Positions 2,513 through 54,999 of a stretch of 64,000 nt of DNA are shown here, piece by piece. Numbering within the stretch: position 1 is the stretch's first letter; each line of letters begins with the position of its first letter. The position numbers and the translations under genes are program-made. The stretch comes from Escherichia coli (GTDB lineage: Bacteria; Pseudomonadota; Gammaproteobacteria; Enterobacterales; Enterobacteriaceae): NCBI RefSeq assembly GCF_051903065.1, contig NZ_CP178438.1. One strand, given 5' to 3'. Under the pieces are notes generated by a model. The model was not told the DNA's origin. It saw only the letters and a program-made list of their open reading frames with translations, and did no database searches.

Positions 2513-3971
2513 ACTTCACGGAATATTTCGCCACGGTCGCTTTCGCACCATGCGCTAATAAAAACAAGTACGCTTCCGTCACTTTTGCAGTAAACAAGCT
2601 ATTGTCTGGCAAATCATCACCAAAGATCGCCTTAATCGCCAGCAATGACTGGACGCGCGCTTTCCCTTCGGCACTACTTTGTACAGCCTTCTGAATAACA
2701 GGTAACAGTGGGTCACTGATTTCAATCGGATTTCCCTGTTCATCAACACCACCGACATAACGCATCCAACCCGCGACGCCCAGCGCCAGCAGATCGAACT
2801 TGCTGTCATGCGCCAGATGCCAGCGAACAGAATCCAACATCCGCTGTGGCAATTTCTGGCTGCCATCCATCGCAATCTGCCAGGTTCGATGGCGTAACGC
2901 CGGGTTGCTATAGCGTGCAATTAATCGGTTAGCGTAATCTTGCAAATCAACGCCCTGCACTTTCAGCGTCGGCGCTTGTTCCTGCAACATCAAGCCATAC
3001 GCCGCATGACGATAATGTTCATCTTCCATACAGTCATTAATGTGCTGATATCCGGCAAGATAACCCAGATACGCCAGGAATGAATGACTGCCGTTGAGCA
3101 TGCGCAACTTCATCTCTTCATAAGGCAGTACATCGCTAACCAGTTCTGCTCCCGCTTTTTCCCATTCCGGACGTCCGGCAACAAAATTATCTTCGATTAC
3201 CCACTGGCGGAAAGGTTCACAGGCAACGCCAGCAGGATCGCGCACACCGGTAAGTTGTTCGATTTTCGCCAGCGTATCCTCTGTCACTGCGGGCACAATA
3301 CGGTCCACCATTGTTGATGGGAAAGTCACGTTATCTTCGATCCATTGTGCCAGTTTTACATCAACGGCTTGCGCGTAGGAAGTGACAACGTCACGCATAA
3401 CATGACCGTTTTCTGGCATGTTGTCACATGACATGACGGTAAATGCGGGAAGTCCTGCCGCTTTACGGCGAGCCAGCGCCTCAACAATCACCCCTGTTGC
3501 TGTTTTCGGCTGGTGGGGATTTTGCACGTCGGCAACGACCATCGGGTGATCGAGCATTAACTGTCCGGTCGCCGGAGAGTGGAAATACCCTTTTTCGGTG
3601 ATTGTCAGAGAGACAATCGCGATTTGTGGTTCACACATCGCAGCCAACACGGTTTCTAAGCCATCTATCTGTACGTGCAAGGCTTTTTTAACGACGCCAA
3701 CGACGCGAGCCGTCCACGCATCGGCCGACATTTCCGCAACGGTATAAAGATTATCTTGCTGTTGTAAATCGGCAATTTGCTGTTCGCCACCGATTAAGTT
3801 GACCTCATAATATCCCCAGTCACTGAAATGTTCTGTAGCAAGAATATCGGCATACACGCCCTGATGCGCACGGTGAAATGCACCAAAGCCTAAATGAACA
3901 ATTCTTGGGGCCAGGTTATTACGATCATAAACAGGGAGTGTCGCTTTTGCTGATAACAAATTATTTCCCAT
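2511..3971 (-). CDS. ydfI: mannitol dehydrogenase-family oxidoreductase (mannonate/altronate oxidoreductase-like)
   Basis: 486-aa ORF; family assignment from overall similarity to UxuB-type proteins by memory. Confidence 0.85.
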
Positions 3972-19429: not shown

Positions 19430-19600
19430 ATGTCAGAACGTAAAGACTCAAAATCACGCCGTAATTATCTCGTTAAATGTTCCTGCCCAAACTGCACCCA
19501 AGAGTCAGAACACAGTTTTTCAAGAGTACAAAAAGGTGCCCTTTTGATCTGCCCTCATTGCAACAAAGTATTCCAGACAAATCTTAAAGCTGTAGCCTGA
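19430..19600 (+). CDS. small zinc-ribbon protein (56 aa, CxxC...CxxC); possibly the K-12 small protein YnfU
   Basis: ATG at 19430 with AGGA upstream; MSERKDSKSRRNYLVKCSCPNCTQESEHSFSRVQKGALLICPHCNKVFQTNLKAVA. Confidence 0.55.
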   Translation: MSERKDSKSRRNYLVKCSCPNCTQESEHSFSRVQKGALLICPHCNKVFQTNLKAVA

Positions 19601-19963
19601 TTGATTTTATTAGTAACAAGTATTTTTTATATTTTAATAATATATTTAAAGCAGATAATAAAAAACCCGCCTGAGCGGGTTTGAGATTGTGGTGCTTTTT
19701 GTGGGAGTCATCCACTTACGCACTTTGTTTTGCGATGCCAGCAGTTAGCTTCTGCTGTGAAACTATTCATGCAGCAAACCTGCACTTCACCACAATGGTT
19801 AGCATACTTTTCCTGATTAAGATTTTGCCAAATATGCTGGCCATTGTTTCATGTATTGGACCTCCTTACTTTTTATTAAAGAGATCCAATATTCACTACT
19901 CTGTCCGTATCTCTACTCAGGCATCAGCCTTCTTCGTTATCGTATACAGACGAGCGATGAATT

Positions 19964-20179
19964 TTAATCAGTAATGATGACATTTACTGCTGCAGGACCT
20001 TTAGCACCACTCTCTATAGAGAAGGTAACCTTTTGACCTTCAAATAAGGTTCGATAATTATCATTCTGAATCGCAGAAAAATGCACAAACACATCTTTAC
20101 TACCATCAACAGGAGAAATAAAGCCGAAACCTTTATCAGCGTTAAACCATTTTACTAAACCAGTCATTTTATTTGACAT
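19964..20179 (-). CDS. cspB: cold shock protein CspB
   Basis: 71-aa [26 protein letters not shown]... Confidence 0.9.
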
Positions 20180-20489
20180 TCTACATTCCTTAACTTGAGC
20201 CTTTCGGCATAAATGGTTTGCATAACAGAAACGACTTCGTACTTAATTGGAGAGACTCAAAGAAGGAATAAGTGAATAACACCTGAAATGAGAACTGCTT
20301 TAGTAAACTACTTCGTATATCGTCTGTTCTTCAAACCGACGCAGTCATTAACTCATAGTTGAACATATGAAGCAATGTTTATTTTAGACATCCAGCCACC
20401 TTCAATCCTATCAAAAAAGTAGTTTTCTCCAGGAACGTGTGTATGGTGCACCAGGTTATCAGTATTAAGGAGTTTTTCTGTCCCCTAAA

Positions 20490-20690
20490 ATGACAGGAAT
20501 TGTCAAAAACTTTGACGGCAAAAGCGGCAAGGGTCTTATCACCCCATCCGATGGTCGTATCGATGTCCAGCTTCATGTTTCAGCGCTCAATCTCCGCGAT
20601 GCAGAAGAAATTACCACCGGATTACGCGTGGAATTTTACCGGATAAATGGTCTGCGTGGCCCTTCAGCTGCCAATGTTTACCTTTCATGA
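20490..20690 (+). CDS. cspF: cold shock protein CspF (start may lie slightly upstream at a non-ATG codon)
   Basis: 66-aa [39 protein letters not shown]... Confidence 0.8.
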
Positions 20691-20744
20691 GCTATATTAA
20701 AGCTTTAATTTCAGGCCCCATCGGATCACACATGGAGAGTTTTT

Positions 20745-20834
20745 ATGAATAACCCCGTCTGTCTTGATGACTGGTTGATTGGCTTTAAAATCTTATGCTG
20801 TACTTTGGCCGTAATAGCTCTGCTAATAATATAA
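20745..20834 (+). CDS. possible tiny hydrophobic protein (29 aa)
   Basis: GGAGAG 6 nt upstream of ATG; [29 protein letters not shown]. Confidence 0.3.
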
Positions 20835-20983
20835 TAAGCAGACTCATTGTGTTTAGGGACATTGTACTGGAAGAAAACATTTTAAACATCAGGCAAATAA
20901 CCAAGTCACCAGCTAAATAATAAGTTAACAGACATGAGTCCCGGGATGAGATTCAACATTACCATTGCCCCATTTAAAGCACA

Positions 20984-21015
20984 AAACCCGCTCATCAGCG
21001 GGTTTTCTACTTTTT
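20984..21015. terminator. bidirectional hairpin terminator between cspF and quuQ
   Basis: AAAACCCGCTCATCAGCGGGTTTT stem-loop flanked by T/A runs on both strands. Confidence 0.6.
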
Positions 21016-21111
21016 CTTAACGTCGGGTATACAAAGCCCATCGTTGAAAAAATTTTATCCATATTTTTTGAAAAATGCAAACATCATGTCGCCATCTTCA
21101 GCAAAAATCAT

Positions 21112-21864
21112 TTATCTCGTCACCTTCCTCAATTGCGCTTCCGCGTATGCTTCTTCCTGCCAGCACTTTGTTACCAGTTTACCAATGACGTCCGCATACC
21201 CCTTATACCACTGATAATCGGTCAGGTCTGGTACCAGCTTCTGGACATGACGTCGTGCCAGCGTGGTCGGTAAACGACTAAACCGGTTTCCATTACAACG
21301 CCCACAAATCTTATATACCGGTACGCCATGAAACCGGGTTCTTTTTTCATCCAGAACAATCCCTTTACCCTTACACCCTCTGCACGCTGTGCTGGCTTCG
21401 CCCTTACCATGGCAATGCTGACATAGTTCCTTCACCCATTCTTCCTTGATTACAGATTCCCCGCGTCTGTAGTGTTTCACCACTTCGCGCAATACATTAT
21501 AAAATCCCGTACCTGAACAATGCTCACAGCGAGCCTTACTTGCCGCAGACCTGGAGTAATCAGCAAAGGCAAAACTCACGAGGTAAGGAATAATCTGTAA
21601 CCGGATTTCTTCACTCAATTTGTTCAATGTCGGGTTATCCAGTGCCATCGCGTAATTTAGCAGGCCTTCAATCGCAAACTGAGGGTCCTGAACACCAACT
21701 TTTGCCAGAAATAAGGCCAACCCAAGTGGTGCTTTCGACTGCACCATCCCCTGCGCTGCCATTACATCCGTAATTGTTAAACAACCGGTGCCTGTCGCTG
21801 GAGCGTCATCGCTCAATTTTGGAGATTTTGGGGAGTAATATTTTGGTAAGGCTTCAAGGTTCAT
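21112..21864 (-). CDS. quuQ: lambdoid late-gene antiterminator Q-like
   Basis: ORF 21112-21894; Cys-rich zinc-binding motifs (CxxC); upstream of lysis cassette. Confidence 0.8.
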   Translation of the reverse strand: MNLEALPKYYSPKSPKLSDDAPATGTGCLTITDVMAAQGMVQSKAPLGLALFLAKVGVQDPQFAIEGLLNYAMALDNPTLNKLSEEIRLQIIPYLVSFAFADYSRSAASKARCEHCSGTGFYNVLREVVKHYRRGESVIKEEWVKELCQHCHGKGEASTACRGCKGKGIVLDEKRTRFHGVPVYKICGRCNGNRFSRLPTTLARRHVQKLVPDLTDYQWYKGYADVIGKLVTKCWQEEAYAEAQLRKVTR

Positions 21865-53593: not shown

Positions 53594-53902
53594 ATGAAAA
53601 AAGTATTAGCTCTGGTTGTTGCCGCTGCTATGGGTCTGTCTTCTGCCGCCTTTGCTGCAGAGACTGCGACCACACCTGCTCCGACTGCGACGACCACCAA
53701 AGCAGCACCGGCGAAAACTACACATCATAAAAAACAGCATAAAGCAGCACCTGCCCAGAAAGCGCAGGCGGCTAAAAAGCATCATAAAAATGCGAAAGCT
53801 GAACAGAAAGCCCCAGAACAAAAAGCGCAGGCAGCGAAGAAACACGCCAAGAAACACAGCCATCAGCAACCGGCAAAACCTGCTGCACAACCCGCAGCGT
53901 AA
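53594..53902 (+). CDS. asr: acid shock protein Asr (low-complexity Ala/Lys/His/Gln-rich periplasmic protein)
   Basis: ORF 53567-53902; start [21 protein letters not shown]...; repeated AAKKH motifs. Confidence 0.85.
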
Positions 53903-53994
53903 GTTTTCAACAGTAATGCTGGCGCGCCCCCTCGCGCCTGAAAATTACGGTGCTAAGCGGGTAACGTTTAGCACCGCCTTTAGCGGAGGGTAGT

Positions 53995-54078
53995 ATGGTG
54001 GGCCGTTATCGCTTTGAGTTCATTCTTATCATCCTTATTTTATGCGCACTGATTGCCGCCCGTTTTTATCTTTCCTGA
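53995..54078 (+). CDS. ydgU: small membrane protein YdgU (27 aa)
   Basis: Hand translation MVGRYRFEFILIILILCALIAARFYLS; known small protein by memory. Confidence 0.6.
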   Translation: MVGRYRFEFILIILILCALIAARFYLS

Positions 54079-54177
54079 CTGTAGTTATCTGATTTTACTC
54101 CCACTTTCATCCCGTCCCGTCTATAGTATTTATGAGGGTTTGCTTTTAATAATCATAATTACCCACCAGAGTGTGAT

Positions 54178-54999
54178 ATGCGTACAACCATTGCTGTAGT
54201 GTTGGGTGCAATTAGTTTGACGTCTGCTTTTGTGTTTGCAGATAAACCAGACGTTGCCAAATCGGCAAACGATGAGGTCAGCACCCTGTTTTTTGGTCAT
54301 GATGATCGTGTGCCAGTGAATGACACGACCCAATCACCGTGGGATGCGGTTGGGCAACTGGAAACGGCCAGCGGCAATTTATGTACGGCGACGCTGATTG
54401 CACCCAATCTGGCATTAACGGCAGGACACTGTTTATTGACACCTCCAAGGGGTAAAGCCGATAAAGCAGTGGCGCTGCGTTTTGTGTCAAATAAAGGTCT
54501 TTGGCGCTATGACATCCACGACATAGAAGGCCGCGTTGATCCGACACTGGGAAAGCGGTTAAAAGCAGATGGGGATGGTTGGATTGTACCTCCCGCAGCC
54601 GCGCCGTGGGACTTCGGATTGATTGTGCTACGTAATCCCCCTTCTGGCATTACGCCGTTGCCGTTATTTGAGGGAGATAAAGCCGCGCTTACCGCCGCAT
54701 TAAAAGCGGCAGGTCGTAAAGTGACTCAGGCAGGATACCCTGAAGATCATCTCGATACGTTGTACAGTCATCAAAACTGTGAAGTGACTGGCTGGGCGCA
54801 AACGTCGGTGATGTCACATCAGTGCGATACCTTGCCGGGTGACAGCGGTTCGCCTCTGATGTTGCATACCGATGACGGCTGGCAATTAATTGGGGTGCAA
54901 AGTTCGGCTCCTGCCGCGAAAGATCGCTGGCGCGCCGATAACCGGGCCATTTCTGTTACCGGTTTTCGCGACAAGCTGGATCAACTGTCGCAAAAATAA
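54178..54999 (+). CDS. ydgD: trypsin-like serine peptidase YdgD
   Basis: 273-aa ORF with signal peptide; TAGHC and GDSGSP catalytic motifs. Confidence 0.85.

Follow-up and report, generated by a model that had tools for sequence, protein, structure and literature searches.

The small open reading frame downstream of cspF in an Escherichia coli prophage region is ynfS, a catalogued small-protein gene of Qin-type lambdoid prophages

A 29-codon open reading frame lies downstream of cspF in the 64,000-nucleotide stretch of E. coli DNA analysed here (hereafter, the window), and the question that it raises is whether so short a sequence is a gene and, if so, of what kind. The original prediction, made from the sequence alone, listed 20745–20834 as a candidate small ORF, hydrophobic and preceded by a Shine-Dalgarno sequence, and proposed ribosome profiling and conservation as the means of checking it. 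The same coordinates were obtained from the sequence and from the ORF list: the coding sequence (20745..20834, + strand) comprises 29 codons plus TAA, starts with ATG, and is followed directly by a second TAA at 20835–20837. Given that 20745 is the earliest start codon past the preceding in-frame stop, no longer version of the ORF is possible.

Comparison with annotated genomes leaves almost no doubt that this ORF is ynfS, a catalogued small-protein gene of E. coli Qin-type lambdoid prophages, and the relationship is one of identity, not of resemblance. The ortholog in K-12 MG1655, b4750 (1642122–1642211), has equal length and occupies the homologous site within the Qin cryptic prophage, with cspF on one side and ydfT (= quuQ, a Q-type antiterminator gene) on the other. 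The annotations of K-12 and S43, together with the alignment, place the gene as expected for an ortholog: it follows cspF and converges with ydfT/quuQ within a Qin-type prophage. Over 700 bp around ynfS, the window and K-12 share 98% identity, and the two 29-residue peptides agree at 28 positions; the YnfS peptide of the window differs from that of K-12 only by the replacement S16I, and the linked cspF allele differs as well. A search of Pfam with the window peptide matched family PF23697, “YnfS,” at 75.1 bits (gathering cut-off of 27, E = 3.2e-21), with residues 1–29 aligned to positions 1–29 of the 29-position profile, and a protein cluster look-up returned the UniProt name YNFS_ECOLI. Megablast of 20400–21100 against complete E. 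coli genomes identified 100% identical copies in many strains, in which RefSeq/PGAP annotates cspF and a 90-nt “hypothetical protein” coding sequence, WP_122985911.1. Searches of NCBIfam, PADLOC, and PDB sequences with YnfS gave no match, and a PHROGs search gave a weak partial match alone (E = 0.046).

What had been proposed as a candidate thus corresponds to an annotated K-12 gene and a full-length member of PF23697. The gene is already known, being named, annotated in the K-12 reference, and represented by its own Pfam family, and as a discovery it matters little, given that it was named and annotated after published tagging and ribosome-profiling work. The original prediction did not recognise the ORF as an already named gene. 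A 2024 review of the y-ome counted ynfS among the uncharacterised Qin genes, and a tiling-array study placed its transcript in a fluoride-down-regulated set; a literature search for a functional study of YnfS found none.

The case nevertheless serves as a positive control, in that a reading of the raw sequence picked out a validated 29-codon gene, and the chance expectation for such a reading was estimated from the window itself. Across its six frames, 385 ATG-first ORFs of 20–50 aa were counted. A GGAG ending 5–11 nt upstream of the start was present in 10 of these, and a 19-residue segment with a mean Kyte-Doolittle value of at least 2.4 was present in 5. Both features were combined in two ORFs, ynfS and ydgU, compared with ∼0.13 expected under independence. 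ORF length by itself is therefore no better than chance, whereas the combination of a Shine-Dalgarno sequence and hydrophobicity is informative. The second ORF, ydgU (53995–54078, + strand; 27 codons, MVGRYRFEFILIILILCALIAARFYLS), lies between asr and ydgD, has a well-spaced GGAG, and encodes a known small membrane protein, so the filter returned precisely the two known small membrane proteins of the window.

The Shine-Dalgarno sequence of ynfS and its spacing are invariant. The Shine-Dalgarno sequence GGAGAG at 20734..20739 (+ strand) is followed by a 5-nt spacer, TTTTT, and then by the ATG, in good agreement with the distance of about 6 nt first proposed; measured from the GGAG core, the distance to the ATG is 7 nt. 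The duplex with the 3′ end of 16S rRNA has a predicted energy of −6.7 kcal/mol, and none of the 21 distinct haplotypes compared showed a variable site in 20730–20743, the region of the Shine-Dalgarno sequence. Ribosomes would load at this GGAG independently of cspF translation.

Direct evidence for translation is available in the literature, and the check by ribosome profiling can be answered in the affirmative. On the K-12 chromosome, VanOrsdel et al. (PMC6001520) fused the SPA tag to 80 candidate small ORFs and obtained immunoblot signals for 36; YnfS is listed in their Table 1 among the tagged proteins detected, with coordinates and sequence that match the K-12 gene, and is noted as positive in a tetracycline ribosome-profiling screen. 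Weaver et al. (bioRxiv 10.1101/511675) reported strong peaks at the ynfS start codon in ribosome profiling with both retapamulin and Onc112, together with a moderate to lower level of the tagged protein. These data establish that, in K-12, ribosomes initiate at the ynfS start codon and the tagged protein accumulates. They refer to the K-12 allele, and the S16I allele of the window has an identical Shine-Dalgarno sequence, start codon, and flanks.

As judged from its composition, the product is probably a short acidic head, MNNPVCLDD, joined to a hydrophobic C-terminal segment of 19–20 residues that would form a single inner-membrane helix with no C-terminal tail. The segment is encoded by codons 10–29 (20772..20831, + strand) and is predicted to form a helix, either spanning the membrane or embedded in it, that reaches the C terminus. 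Its mean Kyte-Doolittle value is 2.56 over 20 aa, with a best 19-mer of 2.74, and on the Hessa scale an unweighted summation gives −2.2 to −2.5 kcal/mol for the window allele and −0.7 to −1.0 kcal/mol for the K-12 S16 allele, S16I making the window segment slightly more hydrophobic than that of K-12. By hydropathy and by this negative sum, the segment is long enough to span the bilayer, even with K15 in it. Given that K15, the sole basic residue of YnfS, lies inside the segment, that there are no flanking basic residues, and that the chain ends at its last hydrophobic residue, the topology of YnfS is not predictable. The E. coli small membrane proteins YdgU, AcrZ, MgtS, and MgrB are likewise shorter than 50 aa, consist of little beyond one hydrophobic helix, and have their own Shine-Dalgarno sequences, but none showed sequence similarity to YnfS in the Pfam scan. 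By analogy with most small membrane proteins that have been characterised, the YnfS helix might, speculatively, target a protein of the host inner membrane or the bilayer itself.

From left to right, the locus consists of ynfU, cspB, cspF, ynfS, a terminator hairpin, ydfT/Q, and ydfU, with the holin and lysis genes left of cspB on the − strand. Just left of cspB, ynfU (19430–19600, + strand) encodes a putative zinc-binding protein of 56 aa, a recently annotated small protein. The cspB gene (19964–20179, − strand) has a long 5′ UTR that matches the Rfam cspA thermoregulator; the match (19917–20340, − strand) is full-length, scores 158.9 bits, and covers the 5′ UTR and the start of cspB. By contrast with cspB, cspF (20478–20690, + strand; placed by alignment and by the annotation of identical strains and of K-12) is without a cspA-type leader, and the Rfam scan of the locus revealed nothing over ynfS or its 3′ region. 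In the spacer between cspB and the lysis genes, next to ynfU, two sub-threshold Rfam matches were observed at 19657–19746 (− strand), to Trp_leader (E = 0.09) and to isrK (E = 0.9). The latter is an Hfq-binding prophage sRNA of Salmonella; both matches are probably due to chance.

The stop codon of cspF is separated from ynfS by a gap of 54 nt. Given that the two genes share a strand and that a terminator scan revealed no terminator-like site between them, they would be transcribed together, with ynfS as the second cistron and the downstream hairpin as the end of the transcript. A scan for a consensus promoter upstream of cspF found none. The hairpin (AAAACCCGCTCATCAGCGGGTTTT, 20983–21006) was identified by the terminator scan as a bidirectional intrinsic terminator, with an A-run before it and a T-run after it, and folds with −15.1 kcal/mol on the + strand and −23.9 kcal/mol in the − strand context. 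A bidirectional terminator had been placed at 20984–21015, which is essentially right; a T-tract follows the hairpin on both strands. With 1 variable site in 21 haplotypes it is the most conserved element of the locus, and it is kept both in deletion alleles that lack ynfS and in phage Tritos. On the other side of it lies ydfT/Q (21112–21864, − strand), the Q antiterminator gene, followed by ydfU. Because the hairpin lies ∼105 nt downstream of Q on the − strand, just after a promoter-like site at 21081..21052 (− strand), it is probably also the late-operon terminator tR′, the two elements forming a pR′/tR′ pair.

Lambdoid phages classically carry morons in the interval from Q to the lysis genes, stx of the Stx phages being an example. 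The cspB/cspF-ynfS module is found between Q and the holin gene in the viable lambdoid phages PhiR42_1, HannyBb, PhiR63_1, and 2H10, and resembles other lambdoid morons in being an autonomous unit between Q/tR′ and holin that is present in some phages only. Unlike these, cspF-ynfS lies on the strand opposite late transcription, with Q and the lysis genes on the − strand and cspF-ynfS antisense to their transcription. Given this position and orientation, production of the YnfS peptide would be expected in the lysogen and not in lytic growth.

The distribution of the gene is that of an accessory element. At least 80% of 20691–20990 is present in 1405 of 5426 complete E. coli genomes (about 26%), whereas the 501-bp segment around ydgU (53800–54300) is present in 5422 of the same 5426, making ydgU a core gene. 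A further ∼220 complete genomes, and phage Tritos, have the terminator part of the region only. Two of these genomes, W2-5 and EC43, were examined; in both, a deletion extends from the last cspF codons to ∼40 nt before the terminator (∼20682–20940 of the window), removing ynfS and leaving a cspF that is annotated as a pseudogene.

Beyond E. coli, one genome per species was scanned for 100,044 species with a degenerate DNA pattern for 10 YnfS residues. These species representatives yielded a single match, to contig DXKH01000110.1 of a metagenome-assembled genome labelled “Citrobacter sp.,” in which 2950–3640 is 100% identical to the window across cspF, ynfS, the terminator, and Q. Misbinning of E. 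coli prophage DNA into a Citrobacter genome is the probable origin of this contig, the other explanation being a very recent transfer, and a match that is 100% identical to E. coli DNA is uninformative as to conservation across genera. A YnfS variant labelled Salmonella enterica also occurs in the protein collection. A ynfS paralogue was sought downstream of cspH, the cspH-cspG pair being paralogous to cspF-cspB; none is present, and the homology stops at the csp stop codon.

Sequence variation was assessed in copies from genomes, phages, and IMG/VR. An initial IMG/VR scan with a degenerate pattern for residues 4–15 retrieved 60 loci, and a second scan, anchored on the 3′ end of cspF to avoid selection for an intact peptide, retrieved 65; after the window and the loci from genomes and phages were added, there were 69 copies with sufficient flank for analysis. 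An intact 29-codon ORF with ATG was present in 66 of the 69. The null alleles were ATG to ATA, in one copy, and K15stop, in two IMG/VR loci, of which just one had enough sequence to enter the set of 69. Only 1 of the distinct changes in ynfS was synonymous (at C6), compared with 11 that were non-synonymous or disruptive (M1I, N2D, N3K, P4S, L11M, I12T, K15*, S16I, A22T, V23L, and I29M), giving a pN/pS of about 3 that is not distinguishable from neutral (binomial p = 0.24). At the same loci, cspF had 18 synonymous and 13 non-synonymous changes, with a pN/pS of 0.24 and fewer replacements than expected under neutrality (p = 1e-4), and the two genes differ in their ratios of changes (Fisher p = 0.005). 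Conservative replacements predominate in the hydrophobic segment (A22T, V23L, I29M, L11M, and S16I), I12T being the exception, and the protein collection contains many rare single-residue YnfS variants, among them changes of each cysteine (C6Y, C18Y, and C19S).

Between K-12-type and F637-type haplotypes, ynfS is 2–4% diverged and the flanking non-coding DNA 12–13% (p = 0.004–0.06). This gradient was considered as a sign of constraint on ynfS and set aside: given that cspF is diverged at 0 of 213 positions in the same comparison, a mosaic recombination boundary explains it equally well. Overall, the ynfS ORF and its translation signals are kept; selection could not be detected at the amino-acid level, and alleles that have lost function are tolerated. 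The check by conservation is thereby answered only weakly, in that the 29 codons are kept in 66 of 69 copies, against a narrow distribution and no detectable purifying selection.

We regard it as fairly probable that YnfS is a real but dispensable membrane peptide of a prophage moron, co-transcribed with cspF. The null alleles, the narrow distribution, and the excess of replacements together argue that any function of YnfS is dispensable and weakly constrained, and the gene is dispensable and either evolutionarily young or weakly constrained. The same data can be accommodated by a peptide that is translated but unselected: the cspF mRNA would happen to carry a good ribosome-binding site towards its 3′ end, and YnfS would be a case of pervasive translation or of a proto-gene. 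The preponderance of replacements in ynfS, by contrast with cspF, fits such an origin, as do the segregation of nonsense, start-loss, and deletion alleles, the restriction of the gene to a single type of prophage within part of one species, the many rare variants that reach even the cysteines (C6Y, C18Y, and C19S), and a protein level below what the initiation signal suggests. It does not readily account for an invariant Shine-Dalgarno sequence and spacing, for a length fixed at 29 codons in 66 of 69 copies, for segment replacements that mostly stay hydrophobic, or for the retention of ynfS in viable phages; the low divergence of ynfS (2–4%) relative to its flanks (12–13%) would count on the same side, were it not that a mosaic recombination boundary could equally be responsible. 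An unselected peptide is thus a possible, although doubtful, explanation. The replacement pattern lends itself also to a reading in which YnfS is a phage-encoded membrane effector of the lysogen, for example blocking DNA entry by superinfecting phages or modulating a host transporter, and the 11 versus 1 changes reflect diversifying selection in an arms race and not drift; this we consider unlikely. Weak constraint of this kind makes ynfS a reasonable test case in the debate on which translated small ORFs are real genes.

Two further explanations were considered. With its 29 aa, strong hydrophobicity, and prophage location, YnfS would fit a type I toxin-like membrane peptide checked by an antisense or overlapping RNA, as for Ibs, ShoB, TisB, Ldr, and Hok, which are also small, very hydrophobic, and often prophage-borne, and hokD and relBE lie 2.5 kb away. 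A promoter-like site at 20855..20826 (− strand) would give an antisense RNA across ynfS, but the promoter-like matches number 5 compared with 4.1 expected by chance, and the −35 element of this site includes the variable positions 20851 and 20853, so that the site was set aside as a chance-level match that is not conserved and lends no support to an antisense RNA. No Rfam RNA was found at ynfS, a Pfam search at E values up to 10 returned the YnfS family only, without similarity to Hok/Gef, Ldr, Ibs, ShoB, or TisB, and PADLOC returned nothing. Type I toxins are normally kept translationally silent, whereas YnfS gives strong start peaks, is translated readily, and builds up in growing as well as stationary cells, which tolerate it with no reported harm. 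A toxin of this kind is accordingly very improbable. Least credible of all, in our estimation, is a role in cis in which the peptide is irrelevant and ribosomes on ynfS keep Rho or RNases away from the 3′ region of the cspF mRNA, or interfere with the antisense late transcription. Such a role would agree with initiation signals that are conserved while the amino-acid sequence drifts, and with the ∼290 nt that separate the cspF stop from the terminator. However, 148 nt past the ynfS stop are untranslated in any case, the sustained hydrophobic character of YnfS is left unexplained, direct evidence is absent, and the deletion alleles also inactivate cspF and are hence uninformative on this point.

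With respect to the gene upstream of ynfS, the window cspF differs from that of K-12 by a CTG in place of the TTG start and by R3P, T11N, and C54Y, all four changes being non-synonymous. They are common to four loci, three of which also have S16I in YnfS. RefSeq keeps the cspF coordinates for the CTG allele; the distance from the Shine-Dalgarno sequence to the next ATG (20490) is 17 nt. The allele may be a sign that, in this lineage, selection on the cspF-ynfS module as a whole is relaxed or altered. A 118-aa E. coli “CspF” record, SPX19322.1, runs through the spacer into ynfS owing to frameshifts in the assembly, and is an annotation curiosity and not a natural fusion seen elsewhere. In the annotations of S43 and K-12, this prophage stretch contains three small-protein genes that post-date 2018, namely ynfU, ynfS, and, further left, ynfR/ynfQ.
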